Positions 1,056 to 10,419 of a stretch of DNA of 14,492 bases are shown in pieces. The position numbers and the translations under genes are program-made. The DNA is from a virus: UHGV virus genome UHGV-1980068; one strand, given 5' to 3'. The notes under the pieces were generated by a model that was not told the origin of the DNA, made no database searches, and saw only the letters and a program-made list of their open reading frames with translations. Position 1 is the first letter of the stretch. Every line of letters starts with the position of its first letter.

Positions 1056-1592
1056 ATGAACGCAAAAATCAAATACGGCCTGTCAGCTGCTGTTCTGGCG
1101 CTGATTGCTGCAGGCGCGTCTGCTCCTCAGATACTTGACCAGTTTCTGGACGAAAAAGAGGGTAACCACACAACGGCATACCGTGATGGTGCAGGTATCT
1201 GGACCATCTGCCGTGGTGCCATCATGGTGGATGGCAAACCTGTCGTTCCGGGCATGAAGTTGTCGAAGGAAAAATGCGACCGGGTTAACGCCATTGAGCG
1301 TGATAAAGCGCTGGCGTGGGTGGAGAAAAACATCAGAGTGCCGCTGACCNNNNNNNNNNNNNNNNNNNNNATCGCGTCATTCTGTCCGTACAACATTGGT
1401 CCCGGTAAGTGTTTCCCGTCGACGTTTTACAGACGAATTAATGCTGGTGATCGCAGGGGAGCATGCGAAGCGATTCGCTGGTGGATTAAGGACGGTGGCA
1501 GAGACTGCCGTATTCGCTCAAACAACTGTTACGGTCAGGTATCCCGTCGCGACCAGGAGAGTGCGCTGGCGTGCTGGGGAATTGACAGATAA
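1056..1592 (+). CDS. SAR endolysin (T4-lysozyme-fold phage lysozyme, R21/RrrD-like), interrupted by an in-frame 21-N gap
   Basis: N-terminal weakly hydrophobic Gly/Ala-rich signal-anchor-release segment (YGLSAAVLALIAAGASAP). Catalytic E-x8-D-x5-T triad visible in EGNHTTAYRDGAGIWT. Translation closely recalls E. coli cryptic-prophage lysozyme RrrD. The N-run is 21 nt, so the reading frame is preserved across it. Confidence 0.85.
   Translation: MNAKIKYGLSAAVLALIAAGASAPQILDQFLDEKEGNHTTAYRDGAGIWTICRGAIMVDGKPVVPGMKLSKEKCDRVNAIERDKALAWVEKNIRVPLTXXXXXXXIASFCPYNIGPGKCFPSTFYRRINAGDRRGACEAIRWWIKDGGRDCRIRSNNCYGQVSRRDQESALACWGIDR
1350..1370. other. Assembly gap (21 N) inside the endolysin gene
   Basis: Run of n characters in the sequence. 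Confidence 0.99.
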
Positions 1593-1681
1593 GCAGAATA
1601 TTTTGCTGAAAAATGCGGTTTGCTCACACGGACGGATAACACGAAATCCTGCGAACTGACAAAAACTAAGTGAATAAAAGT

Positions 1682-1716
1682 AAAAACCCCGTTTGTTGGC
1701 TGCAAGCGGGGTTTTG
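1682..1716 (+). terminator. Rho-independent terminator-like hairpin (potentially bidirectional)
   Basis: aaaaACCCCG-tttgttggctgcaag-CGGGGTtttt: GC stem flanked by an A-run upstream and a T-run downstream, about 90 nt after the endolysin stop. Confidence 0.6.
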
Positions 1717-1748
1717 TGTTTCTGACCTTGGATAAGGCAAGGGAGAAC

Positions 1749-1931
1749 ATGGAAAAGTATAAACGAATTCTGTTGAGGTTGACTATGAAAAACGGCCTTG
1801 AACTGAAAGCGCCTGTAACTGATGACATCAGCAGAGCACTGGCTTTTGCCATTAAGTGGGTGGCGGTCGGTGTTGCTGTGTCCCCGATGCTGTATGGGCT
1901 GGCAAAACTGGTCATTGCGTTGAAATCGTGA
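1749..1931 (+). CDS. Hypothetical small membrane protein, 60 aa, single C-terminal TM
   Basis: ATG preceded by AAGGCAAGGGAGA. Charged N-terminus followed by a hydrophobic stretch (IKWVAVGVAVSPMLYGLAKLVIAL). Tightly packed between endolysin and Rz. The tool's GTG start at 1716 lies inside the terminator hairpin and is less likely. Confidence 0.45.
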   Translation: MEKYKRILLRLTMKNGLELKAPVTDDISRALAFAIKWVAVGVAVSPMLYGLAKLVIALKS

Positions 1932-1945
1932 AGGGAGGATTAAGC

Positions 1946-2077
1946 ATGTCAGACAAACTCATAACGCTGGCGAAGATCCTCTGTGTAATTGTCGGCATTT
2001 CATTTTCACTAATGCTGGTTGCCATTTTCTTTTCCACCGCCTGGCGAGTCCTGACGTTATCGGGACTGGTGGGGTGA
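1946..2077 (+). CDS. Hypothetical small membrane peptide, 43 aa, single TM
   Basis: Strong RBS AAGGGAGGA at 1931-1939 overlapping the stop of the previous ORF. Almost entirely hydrophobic ([23 protein letters not shown]). Ends 8 nt before the Rz start. Confidence 0.4.
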
Positions 2078-2084
2078 AAGAGAG

Positions 2085-2550
2085 ATGAGCCGTGTTCTGT
2101 GTGTGGTGATTATTGTCCTGGCGGGTGGCTGTGGTGCGCTGTGGCTGGCAACAGACCATTACCGCGATAACGCCATCACCTACAAAGTGCAGCGCGATAA
2201 AAAAGCCAGAGAGCTGGAGCTGGCAAACGCCACCATTACTGATATGCAGGTGCGCCAGCGCGATGTTGCTGCGCTCGATGCAAAATACTCGAGGGAATTA
2301 GCCGATGCGAGAGCTGAAAATGAAACTCTGCGTGCTGATGTTGCTGCTGGTCGTAAGCGCCTGCGGATCAACGCCACCTGCTCCGGTACCGTGCGTGAAG
2401 CCACCGGCACCTCCGGCATGGATAATGCAACCGGCCCCCGACTGGCAGACACCGNNNNNNNNNNATTTCACCCTCAGAGAGCGGTTGATGATGATGCAGA
2501 AGCAGCTGGAAGGGGCACAGGAATATATCCGCACTCAGTGCCTGAAATAA
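2085..2550 (+). CDS. Rz: Rz i-spanin (inner-membrane spanin subunit), frame broken by a 10-N gap
   Basis: N-terminal approximately 120 aa closely recall lambda Rz (MSRV...[45 protein letters not shown]...AAGRxRL). After the gap the homologous C-terminus (FTLRERLxxMQKQLEGxQxYIxxQC) continues in the +1 frame to the stop at 2548-2550. The tool's 2085..2642 tail is a frame artefact. Confidence 0.85.
2305..2488 (+). CDS. Rz1: Rz1 o-spanin (outer-membrane lipoprotein spanin subunit), embedded in Rz in an alternative frame
   Basis: Translation [22 protein letters not shown]...[21 protein letters not shown] has a lipobox-like VVSAC and Pro-rich body, recalling lambda Rz1. After the N gap, att tca ccc tca gag agc ggt tga gives ISPSERG-stop, matching the lambda Rz1 C-terminus. 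Confidence 0.75.
2455..2464. other. Assembly gap (10 N) inside Rz/Rz1
   Basis: Run of n characters. Both Rz and Rz1 change frame across it, so the true gap length is not 10 nt. Confidence 0.99.
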
Positions 2551-2851: not shown

Positions 2852-3703
2852 ATGGCAAAGCTGGACTGGAAAAAACTGGAGCAGGTATTCCGACGCGAAC
2901 ATGCCAGAACTGGCATAAAACTTCAGGACTGGTGTCGACAGAACAATATCTGCTATGGCACGGCTCGTCGGTACATAAAACTGCGCAAAAACTCCCCCAA
3001 AAATACAGAGGAAAGTGCGCAGAAAAATGCGCAAAAAAGTGCGCAAATTGACACTCAAAAAAGCGCACAAAAAAATGCGCATGGAGCTGATGACGAGTCC
3101 AGTAATGACGAGTCTTACGGCGATGATGGCAGTGATGAAAAATGCGCAAAAAACTGCGCAAATTCGGCAGAAACGAAACGCAACAGCAGATCGGGTAATC
3201 CTCACCCCGTTGCCCGGTTTAGCGACCGTAACACCCACGCCGTGAGACACCGTGGATATGCGAAGTATCTTGAGGCAGATAACCTCATGGATGATGCGTC
3301 CGATATGGTGCTGTTCGATGAACTGGTGTTCACCCGTGCCCGCGCACTTTCAGTAACAGGAACACTGAAAAAAATGTTCGCCGACCTGAAAGAGGCGGCT
3401 GACGTGGAAACCCGTGTTGCCCTGTACGACAAAATACTTAAAGCCGAACAGGCTCTTGACCGGAATATTGCCCGTATCGAGTCAATTGAACGCTCATTGC
3501 TGACGCTGGACGTTCTGGCGGAAACAGCACCAAAACTTCGTGCTGACCGGGAAAGAATCAACGCCGCCAGAGATAAACTCAGAGCGGAAACCGATATTCT
3601 GACCAGCCAGCGCCGGGGGGTTATTACGCCAGTCAGTGACATCGTGTCATCGCTGCATGAAATGAGTAATTCGGGGAGACTGGATGACATTCCGGAAGAA
3701 TGA
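2852..3703 (+). CDS. Putative terminase small subunit (TerS), 283 aa
   Basis: Sits immediately upstream of the large terminase and overlaps its start by 20 nt. N-terminal basic, HTH-like region (GIKLQDWCRQNNICYGTARRYIKLRK). Low-complexity SAQKNAQKSAQ middle. C-terminal coiled-coil. Confidence 0.6.
   Translation: MAKLDWKKLEQVFRREHARTGIKLQDWCRQNNICYGTARRYIKLRKNSPKNTEESAQKNAQKSAQIDTQKSAQKNAHGADDESSNDESYGDDGSDEKCAKNCANSAETKRNSRSGNPHPVARFSDRNTHAVRHRGYAKYLEADNLMDDASDMVLFDELVFTRARALSVTGTLKKMFADLKEAADVETRVALYDKILKAEQALDRNIARIESIERSLLTLDVLAETAPKLRADRERINAARDKLRAETDILTSQRRGVITPVSDIVSSLHEMSNSGRLDDIPEE
3016..3160. repeat. Phased array of TGCGCA palindromes (six perfect, one GCGCA) within terS; candidate pac/TerS-binding site
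   Basis: TGCGCA at 3016, 3028, 3040, 3076, 3143, 3155 and GCGCA at 3063. Spacings of 12-13 bp within each cluster. Two near-identical approximately 30-bp copies (aaaaatgcgcaaaaaa[g/c]tgcgcaaatt) at 3022-3049 and 3137-3164. Confidence 0.6.
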
Positions 3704-5390
3704 ACCGCGATGTGATGAACCGTCAGAAATGACCGGGACCGAACAACGTCTGTTCATCATGACTAAACTGAGCAATCCCTGGTGGCGGCTCAATCATCTC
3801 TACAAAATACAGAACGAAAAAGGTGAGCTGGTCACCTTCAGAATGCGACCGGCGCAGCGCCAGTTGTTCCGGAGCATGCACAATAAAAATATTATCCTGA
3901 AAGCACGCCAGCTGGGGTTTTCCACGGCCATTGATATTTATCTTCTCGACCAGGCATTATTCATACCGCATCTCAAATGCGGGATTGTCGCTCAGGATAA
4001 ACAGGCTGCCAGTGAAATTTTCCGCACCAAAATTGCTGTACCGTTTGATCATCTTCCTGACTGGCTGAGAGCCTCATTCACCATCGTTGAACGTCGTAGC
4101 GGAGCCAGCGGTGGCTATATCCTGTTTGGTCACGGCTCGAGTATCCAGGTGGCAACCTCATTCCGTTCAGGTACGGTGCAGCGCCTGCATATCTCAGAGC
4201 ACGGCAAAATTTGCGCAAAATATCCGGCTAAGGCGAAAGAACTGCGAACCGGTACACTTAATGCCGTCTCTGATGAGTGCATTATCTTTGATGAATCCAC
4301 TGCTGAAGGTGTGGGTGGCGATTTTTACGAGATGAGTAACCGGGCACAGGAAATCACTGCATCAGGGCTGGCGCTGACGCCACAGGATTATAAATTCCAT
4401 TTTTACGCCTGGTGGCAGGATCTCAAATACAGCGCCAGAGTGCCGGAAAGCGGACTTAAGCTGTCACGGGAAAAAACAGCGTATTTTTCTGCGGTTGAAA
4501 AAGCAATGAACATCACGCTTACCGATGAGCAGAAACACTGGTACATCTGCAAGGAAACTGAACAGCGTGAGGAAATGAAGCAGGAATTTCCCTCAACGCC
4601 ACAGGAGGCGTTTCTGACGTCAGGACGACGGGTGTTCAGTGCGGAAAGCACGCTGCAGGCAGAGTCATTCTGTTCGCCACCGCTGATTGTTTATGACATT
4701 GAACCGGTTACAGGAACGAAGACCAAGGCGCAGTCTCTGCGTGACGGGAATAAAGCCGAACAGCACCGGACGCTGATGAATTATCTGCTGGTCTGGGAGC
4801 TGCCGGATCCGGATGAAGAGTATGTATGCGGAGCAGATACCGCTGAGGGGCTGGAGCACGGAGACCGCTCATCGCTGGATATCATCAGATGCAGTAATGG
4901 TGAGCAGGTGGCTCACTGGTTTGGTCATCTCGATGCGGAGCTTTTCGCTCATCTCATTGCGCAGGTCTGCCGTATGTACAACAACGCGTTTGTGGGGCCG
5001 GAGCGTAACAATCACGGACATGCCGTTATCCTGAAACTCAGGGAACTCTATCCGACGCGTTATATCTACAACGAACAGCACCTTGACCAGGCATATGACG
5101 ACGATACGCCCCGTCTTGGCTGGCTGACAACCCGCCAGAGTAAACCGGTCCTGACAGAGGGAATGAAAACGCTGCTGAATAACGGCCTGTCGGGGATCCG
5201 CTGGTCGGGCACATTATCAGAAATGAACACCTACGTTTATGACGCGAAAGGCTCCATGAATGCACAGGAAGGCTGTTTTGATGATCAGCTTATGAGCTAC
5301 ATGATTGCCCAGGAGATGCGCGCCAGAATGCCGGTGAGGGTAAAACAGAAAACGGATAAACGCAGAACCACACACTGGATGGCTCACTGA
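3684..5390 (+). CDS. Terminase large subunit (TerL), 568 aa
   Basis: GGGGAGA RBS. N-terminal ATPase-like region with Walker-A-like ILKARQLGFST and Walker-B-like hydrophobic-DE (IIFDEST). C-terminal nuclease-like region. Translationally coupled to the downstream portal (ATGA overlap). Confidence 0.8.
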   Translation: MTFRKNEPRCDEPSEMTGTEQRLFIMTKLSNPWWRLNHLYKIQNEKGELVTFRMRPAQRQLFRSMHNKNIILKARQLGFSTAIDIYLLDQALFIPHLKCGIVAQDKQAASEIFRTKIAVPFDHLPDWLRASFTIVERRSGASGGYILFGHGSSIQVATSFRSGTVQRLHISEHGKICAKYPAKAKELRTGTLNAVSDECIIFDESTAEGVGGDFYEMSNRAQEITASGLALTPQDYKFHFYAWWQDLKYSARVPESGLKLSREKTAYFSAVEKAMNITLTDEQKHWYICKETEQREEMKQEFPSTPQEAFLTSGRRVFSAESTLQAESFCSPPLIVYDIEPVTGTKTKAQSLRDGNKAEQHRTLMNYLLVWELPDPDEEYVCGADTAEGLEHGDRSSLDIIRCSNGEQVAHWFGHLDAELFAHLIAQVCRMYNNAFVGPERNNHGHAVILKLRELYPTRYIYNEQHLDQAYDDDTPRLGWLTTRQSKPVLTEGMKTLLNNGLSGIRWSGTLSEMNTYVYDAKGSMNAQEGCFDDQLMSYMIAQEMRARMPVRVKQKTDKRRTTHWMAH

Positions 5391-7534
5391 TGAAAAATGA
5401 AACTAATACCATGGCGACGAAAAACGACAACGGAGCCACGCCGCGTTTTTCTCAGCGCCAGTTACAGGCGCTTTGTTCTGATATTGACAGTCAGCCTAAA
5501 TGGCGCGATGCCGCAAACAAGGCCTGTGCGTATTACGATGGTGACCAGTTGCCACCGGAAGTTCTCCAGGTGTTGAAAGATCGCGGTCAGCCGATGACCA
5601 TCCATAACCTCATCGCGCCTACCGTTGATGGTGTTCTGGGTATGGAGGCCAAAACGCGGACTGATCTGTTGGTGATATCAGATGATCCTGATGATGAAAC
5701 AGAAAAACTGGCTGAAGCTATTAATGCTGAATTTGCCGATGCTTGCCGCCTTGGAAATATGAATAAAGCCCGTTCTGATGCCTATGCGGAACAAATCAAA
5801 GCGGGGCTCAGCTGGGTGGAGGTCAGACGGAACAGCGATCCGTTCGGGCCTGAGTTTAAGGTGTCTACTGTCAGCCGGAATGAAGTGTTCTGGGACTGGC
5901 TTAGCCGGGAGGCTGATTTAAGTGACTGCCGCTGGCTGATGCGCCGCCGCTGGATGGATACCGATGAGGCAAAAGCCACATTTCCGGGAATGGCTCAGGT
6001 TATCGATTATGCCATTGATGACTGGCGTGGTTTTGTCGATACCACGGTTACTGAAGGCCAGCCCAGTCCGTTGATGAGTGCATGGGAAGAGTATCAGTCA
6101 TGGGATCGACAGCAGAACGAATGGCTTCAGCGTGAACGCCGTCGTGTGCTGCTTCAGGTGGTTTATTACCGTACATTCGAGCGTCTTCCGGTGATTGAAC
6201 TCAGTAATGGACGGGTGGTGGCCTTTGATAAAAATAATCTGATGCATGCGGTGGCTGTGGCATCCGGGCGGGTGCAGGTGAGAGTCGGGCGGGTAAGTCG
6301 TATTCGTGAAGCCTGGTTTGTGGGACCGCACTTTATTGTGGATCGCCCCTGCAGTGCGCCGCAGGGGATGTTCCCGCTGGTTCCCTTCTGGGGATACCGG
6401 AAGGATAAAACCGGGGAGCCTTACGGGCTGATTTCCCGGGCCATTCCGGCACAGGATGAGGTGAATTTTCGTCGTATAAAACTGACGTGGTTGCTTCAGG
6501 CCAAACGCGTGATTATGGACGAGGATGCCACCCAGTTGTCAGACAACGATCTGATGGAGCAGATCGAGCGTCCGGATGGCATTATTAAACTGAATCCGGC
6601 CCGAAAAAATCAGAAAAGCGTTGCTGATGTTTTCCGGGTTGAACAGGATTTTCAGGTTGCCAGCCAGCAGTTTCAGGTCATGCAGGAGTCGGAAAAACTT
6701 ATCCAGGACACGATGGGGGTTTATTCCGCATTTCTCGGGCAGGATTCAAATGCATCGTCCGGCGTGGCGATCAGCAACCTGGTGGAGCAGGGAGCCACAA
6801 CCCTTGCCGAAATCAACGATAACTACCAGTTTGCCTGCCAGCAGGTGGGAAGGCTGTTGCTCGCTTATCTTCTTGATGACCTGAAAAAGCGGCGTAATCA
6901 TGCGGTGGTGATTAATCGCGATGATCGTCAGCGTCGCCAGACCATTGTCCTCAATGCTGAAGGTGATAATGGTGAACTGACCAATGATATTTCAAGGTTA
7001 AATACACATATTGCGCTGGCTCCTGTTCAGCAGACACCGGCGTTTAAGGCACAGCTTGCACAGAGAATGTCAGAGGTTATTCAGGGGCTGCCGCCTCAGG
7101 TGCAGGCTGTTGTGCTCGATCTGTGGGTTAATCTTCTGGATGTGCCGCAGAAACAGGAATTTGTCGAACGTATTCGTGCGGCGCTGGGGACGCCAAAATC
7201 ACCGGATGAGATGACTCCGGAAGAGCAGGAAGCGGCAGCACAACAGCAGGCGCTGGAGCAACAGCAGGCAGAACTTCAGATGCGCGAAATGACAGGCCGG
7301 GTGGCTAAACTGGAAGCAGAAGCTGCCAGGGCACGCGCGGCTGCGCAACGGGATAATGCTGGCGCACAACGGGATGTCGCCGCGGCACAGGGACAGCGTT
7401 ATGTGGATGCGCTTAACCAGGCACATACGGCAGAAATCATTACCGGCATACAGAATATGGAACAGGAGCAGGAAGTTCTTCAGCAACAGATGCTGCATAC
7501 ACTACAACAGCGGATGCATGAAATGCCGCTCTGA
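5390..7534 (+). CDS. Portal protein, 714 aa
   Basis: Large protein immediately after TerL with a stop/start overlap. Long C-terminal Q/A/E-rich coiled-coil (QQQALEQQQAELQMREM...AKLEAEAARARAAAQ) typical of podovirus-type portals. Size and position fit. Confidence 0.75.
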   Translation: MKNETNTMATKNDNGATPRFSQRQLQALCSDIDSQPKWRDAANKACAYYDGDQLPPEVLQVLKDRGQPMTIHNLIAPTVDGVLGMEAKTRTDLLVISDDPDDETEKLAEAINAEFADACRLGNMNKARSDAYAEQIKAGLSWVEVRRNSDPFGPEFKVSTVSRNEVFWDWLSREADLSDCRWLMRRRWMDTDEAKATFPGMAQVIDYAIDDWRGFVDTTVTEGQPSPLMSAWEEYQSWDRQQNEWLQRERRRVLLQVVYYRTFERLPVIELSNGRVVAFDKNNLMHAVAVASGRVQVRVGRVSRIREAWFVGPHFIVDRPCSAPQGMFPLVPFWGYRKDKTGEPYGLISRAIPAQDEVNFRRIKLTWLLQAKRVIMDEDATQLSDNDLMEQIERPDGIIKLNPARKNQKSVADVFRVEQDFQVASQQFQVMQESEKLIQDTMGVYSAFLGQDSNASSGVAISNLVEQGATTLAEINDNYQFACQQVGRLLLAYLLDDLKKRRNHAVVINRDDRQRRQTIVLNAEGDNGELTNDISRLNTHIALAPVQQTPAFKAQLAQRMSEVIQGLPPQVQAVVLDLWVNLLDVPQKQEFVERIRAALGTPKSPDEMTPEEQEAAAQQQALEQQQAELQMREMTGRVAKLEAEAARARAAAQRDNAGAQRDVAAAQGQRYVDALNQAHTAEIITGIQNMEQEQEVLQQQMLHTLQQRMHEMPL

Positions 7535-7552
7535 AAATCCTGAACTTAACGG

Positions 7553-7578
7553 AACCCCGTCATCGTACGGGGTTTTTT
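7553..7578 (+). terminator. Rho-independent terminator/attenuator after portal
   Basis: aACCCCGT-catcgt-ACGGGGTtttttt: 7-bp GC-rich stem followed by a T6 run. Confidence 0.7.
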
Positions 7579-8721: not shown

Positions 8722-9936
8722 ATGACCACAGTAACAACAGCCCAGGCGAATAAGCTGTATCAGGTGGCGCTTTTCACGGCTGCCAACCGCAACCGCTCAA
8801 TGGTGAATATACTCACTGAACAGCAGGATGCACCAAAAGCAGTTTCGCCTGACAAGAAAAGCACGAAGCAGACCAGTGCCGGTGCACCGGTTGTGCGAAT
8901 CACGGACCTCAACAAACAGGCCGGTGATGAAGTGACGTTCAGCATCATGCACAAACTCTCTAAACGTCCGACGATGGGGGATGAGCGCGTTGAAGGCCGT
9001 GGTGAAGACCTCAGCCATGCTGATTTTTCCCTGAAAATTAATCAGGGCCGTCACCTGGTGGATGCGGGCGGACGTATGAGCCAACAGCGTACGAAGTTCA
9101 ACCTGGCATCCTCTGCCAGAACGCTGCTGGGTACGTACTTTAACGACCTGCAGGACCAGTGTGCGATAGTGCATCTTGCCGGTGCCCGCGGTGATTTTGT
9201 TGCTGATGACACCATTCTGCCAACGGCAGATCACCCTGAATTCAAAAAAATCATGATCAACGACGTACTGCCGCCGACGCATGATCGTCATTTTTTCGGT
9301 GGGGATGCGACGAGTTTTGAGAGTATTGACCAGTCTGACCTGTTCACTCTTGCGCTGGTCGATAATCTCTCGTTGTTTATTGACGAGATGGCTCATCCGT
9401 TACAACCGGTACGCCTGTCCGGTGATGAGCTGTATGGCGAAGATCCGTATTACGTCCTCTACGTCACGCCGCGTCAGTGGAATGACTGGTACACCTCCAC
9501 GTCCGGCAAGGACTGGAACCAGATGATGACGCGTGCCGTAAACCGCTCAAAAGGGTTTAACCATCCGCTGTTCAAAGGCGAATGTGCGATGTGGCGCAAT
9601 ATTCTGGTCCGTAAGTATGCGGGGATGCCGATCCGTTTCTATAAGGACTCAAAGGTCCTTGTATCGAAAAACGATATGGCAGCAACCACAGAGGAGAAGC
9701 AGGCCAAGACCAACATCGACCGTGCCATGCTGCTGGGGGCTCAGGCGCTGGCGAATGCGTACGGCCAGAAGGGCGGCGGCCACTTCAACATGGTTGAGAA
9801 GAAAACGGATATGGATAACCGTACTGAGATAGCAATCAGCTGGATCAACGGTCTGAAAAAAATCCGTTTCCCCGAGAAGAGCGGCAAGATGCAGGATCAC
9901 GGTGTTATTGCCGTTGATACCGCAGTGAAGCTGTGA
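8722..9936 (+). CDS. Major capsid (coat) protein, 404 aa
   Basis: AAGGAG RBS. Size and position (after scaffold, followed by a strong terminator) fit a coat protein. No catalytic motifs. Confidence 0.7.
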   Translation: MTTVTTAQANKLYQVALFTAANRNRSMVNILTEQQDAPKAVSPDKKSTKQTSAGAPVVRITDLNKQAGDEVTFSIMHKLSKRPTMGDERVEGRGEDLSHADFSLKINQGRHLVDAGGRMSQQRTKFNLASSARTLLGTYFNDLQDQCAIVHLAGARGDFVADDTILPTADHPEFKKIMINDVLPPTHDRHFFGGDATSFESIDQSDLFTLALVDNLSLFIDEMAHPLQPVRLSGDELYGEDPYYVLYVTPRQWNDWYTSTSGKDWNQMMTRAVNRSKGFNHPLFKGECAMWRNILVRKYAGMPIRFYKDSKVLVSKNDMAATTEEKQAKTNIDRAMLLGAQALANAYGQKGGGHFNMVEKKTDMDNRTEIAISWINGLKKIRFPEKSGKMQDHGVIAVDTAVKL

Positions 9937-9952: not shown

Positions 9953-9975
9953 GCCGGGTTATCGCCCGGCTTTTT
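9953..9975 (+). terminator. Rho-independent terminator/attenuator after capsid gene
   Basis: GCCGGG-ttatcg-CCCGGC followed by ttttt. Confidence 0.7.
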
Positions 9976-9990
9976 CAGGAGTCATTAATT

Positions 9991-10383
9991 ATGGCAAAGA
10001 CTATCCTTGCTCCGTCACTGAGTGAGCGGGTTTATTCAGGTACGCATGGTAATGAGTCGGTGGCAGAAGGTGTGTTTACAGTGAATGCTGCCGAACAGGA
10101 AACCGTTATTAATCTTCTCTCACTGCCGACTGGCGTTCGCATTAATGGGATCCAACTGATTTCAAAAGGTGGTCTTGGTGGTACGGCGACCGTCAGCGTT
10201 AAATCTGGCAAGCATGAGCTCATTGGTGACAGTGGTGCAGTAACTGCCAGCTTTGCTAAATATGTGCCAGTGGAGCCGTACACCACACAGAGTGATGGAG
10301 AGCTGGTTACGGTCACCATTAAGACAGCTGCTGCGACCGGTACCCTGAATGTTCTGCTGCGTTATACCGTGGTGGGATACTGA
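9991..10383 (+). CDS. Hypothetical virion protein, 130 aa (possible head decoration/auxiliary capsid protein)
   Basis: AGGAG RBS. Beta-rich Gly/Thr/Val composition. Bracketed by two intrinsic terminators directly after the coat gene, as expected for an abundantly expressed head component. Confidence 0.5.
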   Translation: MAKTILAPSLSERVYSGTHGNESVAEGVFTVNAAEQETVINLLSLPTGVRINGIQLISKGGLGGTATVSVKSGKHELIGDSGAVTASFAKYVPVEPYTTQSDGELVTVTIKTAAATGTLNVLLRYTVVGY

Positions 10384-10396
10384 TATAAACCTTCCG

Positions 10397-10419
10397 GCCC
10401 GCGTCATGCGGGCTTTTTT
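10397..10419 (+). terminator. Rho-independent terminator/attenuator
   Basis: GCCCGC-gtcat-GCGGGC followed by tttttt. Confidence 0.7.

Follow-up and report, generated by a model that had tools for sequence, protein, structure and literature searches.

Lambdoid phages are said to carry morons, a class of accessory genes that Juhala et al. reportedly defined in 2000 and that includes HK97 gene 15 and lambda bor and lom. We examined a comparable unit at positions 1682-2084 of the virus genome UHGV-1980068, within the stretch of 14,492 nucleotides that we call the window and whose open reading frames (ORFs) identify it, by their profile matches, as the late region of a lambdoid Escherichia coli prophage. 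A hairpin and two very short ORFs, ORF1 and ORF2, lie there between the endolysin gene and Rz. Like a moron, the ORF1 unit is small and self-contained, separates late genes that are direct neighbors in related phages, has a base composition unlike that of its neighbors, comprises a factor-independent terminator and recurs as the same unit at different junctions; the product of a moron is, moreover, often a small envelope protein. It differs from a moron in that a consensus scan detected no sigma-70 promoter for it and in that its terminator precedes the gene instead of following it. These two differences lead us to expect expression from antiterminated late transcripts rather than from the prophage. 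We conclude that ORF1 and ORF2 are real accessory genes, each encoding a very small protein of the inner membrane, and we consider it somewhat probable that they are late-expressed, moron-like cargo in a variable slot of the lambdoid late operon.

ORF1 (1749-1931, plus strand), preceded by the Shine-Dalgarno (SD) sequence AAGGGAG at 1739-1745, encodes 60 amino acids (aa); the protein starts with a basic helix, carries an MKNG...AP.T motif and ends in a long hydrophobic helix. Its single hydrophobic segment reaches 1.88 in the best 19-residue Kyte-Doolittle window (residues 38-56), over the usual threshold, and an AlphaFold2 model places a helix at residues 2-14, then a loop and a helix of 35 residues (25-59), the latter with a predicted local distance difference score (pLDDT) of ~83. 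ORF2 (1946-2077, plus strand) encodes 43 aa forming an N-terminal transmembrane (TM) helix, with a best window of 2.87 at residues 11-29, and a short tail of 14 residues. Its ribosome binding site (RBS), AAGGGAGGA, was read directly from the sequence at 1931-1939, base 1931 being shared with the ORF1 stop codon as its last base, and a 7-nt gap separates the end of ORF2 (2077) from the start of Rz (2085). The initial annotation of this DNA, made from the letters alone, had described a hairpin and two short ORFs of 60 and 43 aa between endolysin and Rz, each with one hydrophobic helix, the second with a strong RBS and close to Rz; we found all of these elements where it had placed them. The two proteins were also considered as paralogs, an idea that we rejected on an hhalign probability of 4.6%.

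Both ORFs are annotated as RefSeq coding sequences under the name "hypothetical protein," and both match PHROG families of unknown function: phrog_1115 (E = 1.4e-42), phrog_4493 (E = 2.6e-30) and phrog_3246 (E = 4.5e-19) for ORF1 and phrog_4906 (E = 2.5e-27, full length) for ORF2. Neither had a significant match in Pfam, NCBIfam or the PADLOC defense models, a full-text literature search with peptide strings of the ORFs returned no paper, and we found no functional study of either protein in the literature. Since the genes already have database entries, both as hypothetical proteins and within PHROG families, they are not new as objects; what is new here is the architecture of the unit, its mobility and the breadth of the ORF1 family.

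Several observations establish that the two frames are real coding genes. ORF1 has 121 homologs (E <= 0.01), the named ones being from Escherichia and Salmonella with one Pseudomonas-labelled partial sequence, and the 115 homologs of ORF2 are nearly all labelled E. coli, one of them also Shigella. Reading frames and lengths hold down to 50 to 60% protein identity. ORF1 and its Salmonella copy differ by 19 synonymous and 14 nonsynonymous changes (dN/dS 0.18, p = 6e-5; 0.04-0.25 across pairs), and ORF2 and its O157 copy by 11 synonymous and 2 nonsynonymous changes (dN/dS 0.05, p = 3e-5; 0.05-0.43 over pairs); both are subject to purifying selection. In line with an accessory nature, the G+C content (GC) of ORF1 (47.5%) and ORF2 (48.5%) is lower than that of the endolysin gene (53.5%) and Rz (55.9%). 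It is hardly credible that the segment is a noncoding spacer with chance ORFs: the ORFs are indeed very short, neither has a Pfam family and ORF2 is frameshifted in 8 of 79 loci, but the substitution pattern, with its significant synonymous excess, already contradicts that idea, as do the conserved frames and lengths, the extension of ORF1 to other genera, the strong RBS of both genes and the ribosome profiling (RIBOseq) support for the ORF2 homolog. The comparison with related prophages proposed at the outset, which could have exposed the segment as noncoding spacer, thus returned conserved ORFs (dN/dS 0.04-0.43) in a slot of variable contents.

The ORF2 homolog of Shiga toxin (Stx)-type prophages is EDL933_1392, predicted to reside in the inner membrane (Neuhaus et al. 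2016). In the ribosome profiling of O157 Sakai it appears as XECs191, again a predicted inner-membrane protein, which in LB (lysogeny broth) had 30.0 reads per kilobase per million (RPKM) for RNA and a RIBOseq RPKM of 12.6, with a ribosome coverage value (RCV) of 0.43 and a coverage of 0.55 (Hücker et al. 2017). XECs191 is ECs_1966 in the current Sakai record. This signal, though weak and from uninduced cultures, agrees with the coding status of ORF2. The same RIBOseq supplement is restricted to unannotated ORFs, which puts the ORF1 variant of the Sakai prophage Sp4 outside its coverage.

The element that opens the ORF1 unit is a hairpin of the bidirectional intrinsic-terminator type (1683-1715, strand unassigned), composed of an A-tract (A5), a 9-bp GC-rich stem (1687-1695 paired with 1703-1711, loop at 1696-1702) and a T-tract, with TTTTGTGTTT 3' of the stem. 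It is the top-scoring terminator-like site of the whole window, and none of 200 shuffled sequences was as stable as its predicted fold (dG -21.6 kcal/mol, z = -4.55). Over 11 lineages, compensatory changes maintain the pairing (93% of cells paired, 3 pairs changed on both sides), with a covariation score above that of every one of 500 shuffles. All lineages of the ORF1 family that we inspected have the succession of A-tract, GC hairpin and T-tract 30 to 45 nt 5' of the start, one locus (L101; loci collected for comparison are cited by such numbers) being an exception in quality, with a degenerate stem and tail. The stem sequence varies, and its flanks are homologous between genomic contexts (AAAGCAAAA on the 5' side, TTTGTTTCTGACCTTGAG on the 3' side).

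The initial annotation had taken this hairpin for a terminator following the endolysin gene, an assignment that we had to revise. The hairpin accompanies ORF1 in all contexts examined, and it is missing from Stx2 phages that keep the same endolysin and the same spacer and carry ant where ORF1 would be; it is therefore not the endolysin's terminator. In L010, L012, L104 and a truncated remnant from Sodalis, the hairpin of the unit is a second one, right behind the preceding gene's own terminator. What belongs to the endolysin module is the AT-rich spacer of 90 nt (1593-1682, plus strand, 39% GC), which is conserved along with the 3' end of the endolysin gene. By these comparisons, the hairpin is the first element of a mobile ORF1 unit and not the end of the endolysin gene. 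Across it runs a minus-strand ORF of 126 aa (1535-1915), which we set aside since it crosses the hairpin and the substitutions fit the plus-strand frames.

Downstream of the hairpin, the minimum free energy fold contains a short, weakly supported stem on the plus strand, CCTTG (1726-1730) with CAAGG (1738-1742), whose 3' arm overlaps the ORF1 RBS; CCTTG...CAAGG or near variants occur in most family members. RNAalifold found no consensus structure in the 5' untranslated regions of the family, for which the alignment was poor, and Rfam gave no credible RNA family, either for the whole window at the gathering threshold or for 1500-2200 at a permissive threshold. GTG or TTG is the start codon of some ORF1 variants, whose SD (GGGAGG) lies within an AGGGA/TCCCT stem (L097 5230-5330 on the minus strand, which is Sakai Sp4; L008 3950-4005; L108 2960-3005). 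In Sakai Sp4, Salmonella L008 and L108, this SD-sequestering stem comes with an 8-codon upstream ORF (uORF) that overlaps the GTG start; in Sp4 and L008 the uORF reads MGREVLSL and MCREVCSL, respectively, and its stop codon overlaps the start as GTGA. The arrangement looks like translational coupling and may be a hint of tight translational control. Annotation pipelines treat such genes inconsistently, with predicted products of 37 to 104 aa from three different start codons.

The ORF1 family comprises proteins of ~40 to 65 aa from Escherichia, Salmonella, the Sodalis remnant and IMG/VR phages. A hidden Markov model (HMM) of ORF1 had 21 matches among 1.84 billion representative proteins. Of these, 19 are small (~20 to 90 aa) and share the pattern x-Y-(K/R)-(K/R)...M-K-(N/D)-G-x-E-x-x-A-P plus a hydrophobic helix, two are large proteins with weak repeat matches, and the search gave no link to a larger domain. 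In a scan of GTDB representative genomes, the only match was the truncated remnant, in a Sodalis metagenome-assembled genome (MAG), which extends the family, as a remnant, to an insect-symbiont lineage. There (L014 and L015, ~2900-3040), the hairpin, the leader and the first 14 codons lie behind another terminator, and the sequence is cut after MKNG.

For the divergent members, we retrieved DNA from IMG/VR and typed the neighboring genes. In L099 and L100, the unit lies between a lambda K-like minor tail protein and the tail assembly protein I, and in L107 it separates the major tail protein from its chaperone. Head genes flank it in L103, and in L109 its neighbors are the major head protein and a holin. 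It follows tail-fiber or assembly genes in L098, L101, L104, L010 and L012 and endolysins in L105 and L108; two Salmonella types of ORF1 homolog are likewise located after tail-fiber genes. Family members thus occupy six or more distinct late-operon junctions, and head or tail modules, away from lysis genes, hold more than half of the family architectures. L101 and L109 contain tandem repeats of hairpin-ORF units, and in some members (L010, L098, L107) a terminator is also found 3' of the gene. Judged by these architectures, the ORF1 unit, which consists of A-tract, GC hairpin, T-tract, usually an RBS stem and an ORF with two in-frame start signals, moves among late-operon junctions. This distribution favors a mobile accessory gene of the late operon over a dedicated lysis gene.

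The endolysin-Rz segment itself is abundant: at least 80% of it was found in 990 of 5,426 complete E. coli genomes (~18%), and two Escherichia phages, PhiR12_3 and PhiR12_4, carry it with 99.6% identity. Part or all of the first 188 nt of the query, which cover the end of the endolysin gene, the 90-nt spacer, the hairpin and the ORF1 leader, occurs in 2,135 of the 5,426 genomes, well above the number of genomes with the ORFs. Other occupants of the slot account for its variability. In Stx2 phages, homology stops just 5' of the hairpin, and ant (189 aa) comes next; behind it is an ORF2-like gene, with 7 nt between its end and Rz. This ant cargo, known from 933W-type Stx phages, resembles our segment in occupying the same gap behind the same spacer and in preceding the ORF2-like gene; it differs in that ant encodes a soluble antirepressor and replaces both the hairpin and ORF1. 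A methyltransferase-like insert is another content of the slot. In Sakai Sp4 and Salmonella L008, an ORF1-type gene abuts Rz without ORF2. The ORF1-ORF2 pair of RM13752, with 84.5% DNA identity, follows a GH108 endolysin and is part of an unrelated cassette. Among the loci collected, ORF2 follows ORF1 in 77 of 95 copies, a sample dominated by close relatives.

The slot of E. coli S6 contains the hairpin, an unannotated hydrophobic ORF of 31 aa, an ORF2-like gene, a C-terminal fragment of ORF1 and a hydrophobic ORF of 28 aa, this nest of tiny ORFs corresponding to L005 2620-3175. In some strains, an 83-aa fusion (protein P0094) joins the N-terminal half of ORF2 to the C-terminal half of ORF1. 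The S6 nest and the fusion suggest that the helices may be frequently shuffled. The initial annotation had held that canonical cassettes are empty at this place. That is so for the textbook cassettes, as we know of no ORF1 or ORF2 in those of lambda, phage 21 or P22; it does not extend to E. coli prophages, in which the slot is busy with ant, tiny TM ORFs and the methyltransferase-like insert. By the genomes compared here, the endolysin-Rz gap is a common cargo slot in E. coli prophages and is not normally empty.

The lambdoid late operon is transcribed by a Q-modified, terminator-resistant polymerase. We propose that the hairpin acts as an intrinsic terminator that would stop ordinary transcription in the lysogen and would be read through only by Q-modified late transcription, while the stem covering the SD may limit translation of ORF1. 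Such late-only read-through implies that both peptides would be made late, together with the holin, the endolysin and Rz/Rz1. Both would insert in the inner membrane, ORF1 being anchored by its C-terminal helix with ~25 to 30 residues in the cytoplasm and ORF2 by its N-terminal helix. The initial annotation had suggested an extra holin or antiholin, a lysis-timing regulator, a membrane toxin or an exclusion protein, all of which stay candidate functions. As to function, our guess is that the peptides modulate a late event at the membrane, for example, the timing of lysis or the exclusion of further phage; an essential step of lysis is not concerned, since many related phages lack ORF1 and ORF2.

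Several points weigh against this late-cargo explanation. The terminator role of the hairpin and its read-through by the Q-modified polymerase are deduced by analogy with lambdoid biology. No plus-strand sigma-70-like promoter was found upstream of ORF1 or ORF2 in a scan that was a crude consensus search, from which a weak or non-sigma-70 promoter would escape. The RIBOseq signal concerns a homolog only, is weak and comes from uninduced cultures, and its reads may be multi-mapped. Finally, the frameshifts mentioned above (~10% of the loci) affect the C-terminal half of ORF2, which is therefore not always maintained.

Were the genes classical morons instead, they would be made in the lysogen and would serve superinfection exclusion at the inner membrane, as does HK97 gp15, or a change in host physiology. 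We judge this very unlikely, even though the units are discrete, lower-GC insertions between genes that are adjacent in relatives, at typical moron sites that include positions downstream of tail-fiber genes. RNA and ribosome signals of the ORF2 homolog in uninduced Sakai point the same way, yet signals this weak could be explained by spontaneous induction. The consensus scan detected no promoter of the kind such genes would use, a terminator 5' of the gene rather than 3' should silence it in the lysogen, and PADLOC matched neither protein.

Should one or both of the peptides bind the S21-type holin or the SAR (signal-anchor-release)-like endolysin in the membrane and tune the time of triggering, like an antiholin or a releasin, the genes would be dedicated lysis regulators, a reading that we consider unlikely but still a serious contender. 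In E. coli and Salmonella lineages, the genes are part of the lysis cassette, with no gap or hardly any before Rz, and an endolysin or a holin adjoins 6 or 7 of the ~15 distinct family architectures. The location of more than half of the architectures in head or tail modules weakens this neighborhood argument, and relatives of the genes also accompany unrelated lysis types (HP1-type holin, GH108, GH19-like). The slot also carries cargo unrelated to lysis, namely ant and the methyltransferase-like ORF, and both genes are missing from many related phages.

Holins and antiholins can be produced from dual starts, as in lambda S107/S105 and phage 21 S71/S68. ORF1 and ORF2 recall such pairs as very small membrane proteins of a lysis cassette, and ORF1 in particular by its two conserved in-frame start signals. 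The differences are that ORF1 has one hydrophobic helix instead of two or three and lacks a charged C-terminal tail, that its starts are 12 codons apart and that the cassette already has an S21-type holin. Indeed, only one basic residue follows the helix in ORF1 and in ORF2, unlike the basic C-terminal tail of holins, and neither protein matched a holin family in Pfam or PHROG, in searches that did recover the true holin (8-223). As for spanins, neither a family match nor a lipobox was found in ORF1 or ORF2, and Rz and Rz1 are encoded separately at 2085-2550.

The closest precedent for a small regulator of this type is the releasin gp25 of phage Mu (DUF2730), a small membrane-tethered protein that is not a holin, has a single-helix inner-membrane tether and a cytoplasmic soluble part, and is needed for the release of the endolysin (Chamblee et al. 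2022, PMC9239132). Its gene follows that of a SAR endolysin at a distance of a few genes, a setting that resembles the present one. Releasins are characterized by an N-terminal TM domain (N-out, C-in) and a cytoplasmic domain of ~70 aa (PMC9239132). ORF1, with 60 aa in all, a C-terminal helix and a basic N terminus, is built differently, ORF2 is almost devoid of a soluble part, and the ORF1 family, unlike gp25, also occurs outside lysis cassettes. In Pfam, ORF1 did not match PF10805/DUF2730, and ORF2 gave only a sub-threshold match to DUF3930 (E = 0.17).

In two loci (L003, 2881-3063; L105, 3156-3335), the unit is followed by a lipoprotein of ~60 aa with a lipobox, and no Rz/Rz1 is recognizable there. 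The L003 lipoprotein belongs to phrog_7528, of unknown function, and that of L105 has no family match. Going by their lipoboxes and position, these lipoproteins could be unrecognized outer-membrane components of lysis or exclusion. A novel spanin formed by one of them with ORF1 or ORF2 was considered and rejected, as neither peptide has a periplasmic domain.

If a peptide of this kind does tune holin triggering, SAR-endolysin release or exclusion, the lambdoid lysis pathway, thought to be fully catalogued, would gain an extra component. An ORF2-type gene lies directly 5' of Rz in many Stx1 and Stx2 phages, in which lysis timing governs toxin release, the homolog of the Stx phages being located between ant and Rz. 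The terminator-first architecture also provides a simple sequence signature with which more tiny late genes could be found.

The 5' part of ORF1 shows a signal at the nucleotide level. Over the 48 nt of ORF1 nucleotides 7-54 (1755-1802, strand unassigned), the E. coli copy and a Salmonella copy have 0 differences, while they differ at 30 of 126 nt (24%) outside this stretch (P ~2e-6) and their leaders differ by an indel. Candidate explanations are an internal start site, an antisense promoter and a recombination patch. The first would correspond to a putative second start at 1775-1787 on the plus strand, in which 6 nt separate GAGG (1775-1778) from an ATG (1785, Met13) and which would yield a 48-aa form. 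GAGG or GGAGG and the Met13 ATG are conserved in all lineages, even in those with differing N-terminal residues, and Met13 is the annotated start in many database entries and in Sakai ECs_1094; this conservation suggests that Met13 may be a real start codon.

The second explanation rests on a promoter-like motif on the minus strand, TAGTCA-18-TATACT (1785-1756), which points at the hairpin. Both hexamers fall inside the identical stretch, and of the 17 lineages that we scored, 10 have T(A/G)G(T/A)CA-18-TATA(C/A)T at this position. Three more lineages deviate, by another -35 hexamer (L010, L012a) or a weaker -10, TAAACT (L109), and the KLYRK subgroup has a weak TACGGT as its only -10 hexamer. 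When the same proteins were synonymously recoded, however, 5 to 62% of the trials gave an equal or better minus-strand promoter score, so that the motif is inseparable from the coding constraint (conserved K-Y-K and L-T-M). The RNA predicted from the motif, ~70 nt long, would run across the start codon and the SD of ORF1 and stop at the hairpin, which offers a T-run on the minus strand too; it is predicted to fold into a 5' region plus the terminator stem.

Such an RNA would make ORF1 an antisense-controlled membrane toxin resembling those of type I toxin-antitoxin (TA) loci, of which hok/sok, symE/symR and zorO/orzO, and hokW-sokW of Sakai Sp5 (PMC8621323), are examples. The likeness lies in a prophage-borne, hydrophobic product of 60 aa (48 aa if translation began at the internal start), in a structured 5' region with the SD in a stem, in the possible antisense promoter facing a terminator and, in some variants, in a uORF over the GTG start that recalls mok/hok coupling. 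The conserved A-tract and T-tract would allow termination in both directions, and the hairpin accompanies the ORF even behind another terminator. We nevertheless hold this type I-like control to be quite unlikely. Besides the outcome of the recoding and the weak -10 of the KLYRK subgroup, ORF1 has no homology to a known type I toxin, the consensus scan revealed no promoter for a toxin mRNA, Rfam had no match and the antisense RNA is predicted only. The position of the unit right behind another terminator in L010, L012 and L104 also speaks against an independent toxin promoter.

The list of Hfq-bound small RNAs from cross-linking in Sakai (Hfq-CRAC; Tree et al. 2014) has none at the Sp4 hairpin, although type I antitoxins need not bind Hfq; the candidate peaks EcOnc33, EcOnc35 and EcOnc52 map elsewhere, either where the esterase gene ends (3' end) or 5' of the holin gene. 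In the same list, EcOnc10, EcOnc11 and EcOnc12 have near-identical scores. EcOnc11 (L112 2460-2508, Sakai Sp10) lies antisense to late transcription in the gap that separates Rz from a downstream ylcI/ynfO-like gene; past Rz, only the first 195 nt of the window match Sakai, and the EcOnc11 site is absent from it. The strings that we searched for in the EDL933 Cappable-seq supplements of transcription start sites were not present there.

A broader version of this idea, that the unit is a hitherto unrecognized kind of mobile phage cassette, made up of a small membrane-active peptide gene with its own control, whether type I TA-like or an "insulated toxin" module, seems to us doubtful, though worth keeping in mind. 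Under it, the bidirectional hairpin and the sequence of the first 18 codons, through the antisense promoter, the second start or both of these, would prevent synthesis of the peptide until the locus is flooded by late transcription. The module would hop between late-operon junctions of many enterobacterial phages, and ORF2 would be a second, E. coli-specific peptide, linked to Rz and also present in Shiga-toxin phages.

In the window, the cassette begins with the S21-type class II holin (8-223; PF04971, E = 7e-33). The slot is bordered on the left by the endolysin of the Phage_lysozyme family (1056-1592, plus strand; PF00959, E = 4.4e-21), whose SAR-like N terminus is weakly hydrophobic (Kyte-Doolittle window 1.78), and on the right by Rz (2085-2550, plus strand; PF03245, E = 7.7e-33) with the embedded Rz1 (from 2305; PF06085, E = 4.1e-14). 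The small and large terminase subunits and then head and tail genes follow. Further strong intrinsic-terminator hairpins lie within the same operon, at 7551-7576, in the gap after a 714-aa ORF (5390-7534), at 9953-9970, after a 404-aa ORF (8722-9936), and at 10396-10414, after a 130-aa ORF (9991-10383). None of the three precedes a small ORF of the ORF1 type; internal terminators elsewhere in the late operon are expected of an antiterminated operon.

A second cargo slot (227-1016) separates the holin gene from that of the endolysin. Its contents are a YdfR/DUF1327-like ORF of 169 aa with a long C-terminal extension (227-736; phrog_2091) and a convergent ORF on the minus strand (684-1016; phrog_2572, function unknown), both of low GC (42 to 44%). 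Runs of masked bases (N) interrupt the endolysin gene (1350-1369) and Rz/Rz1 (2455-2464), and the latter, 10 nt long, makes Rz look frame-broken in mechanical ORF lists. Lastly, the small terminase gene contains, at 2990-3170, a run of TGCGCA(N6)TGCGCA inverted repeats that encodes the repetitive peptide AQKNAQKSAQ and produces several spurious terminator-like matches on the minus strand.

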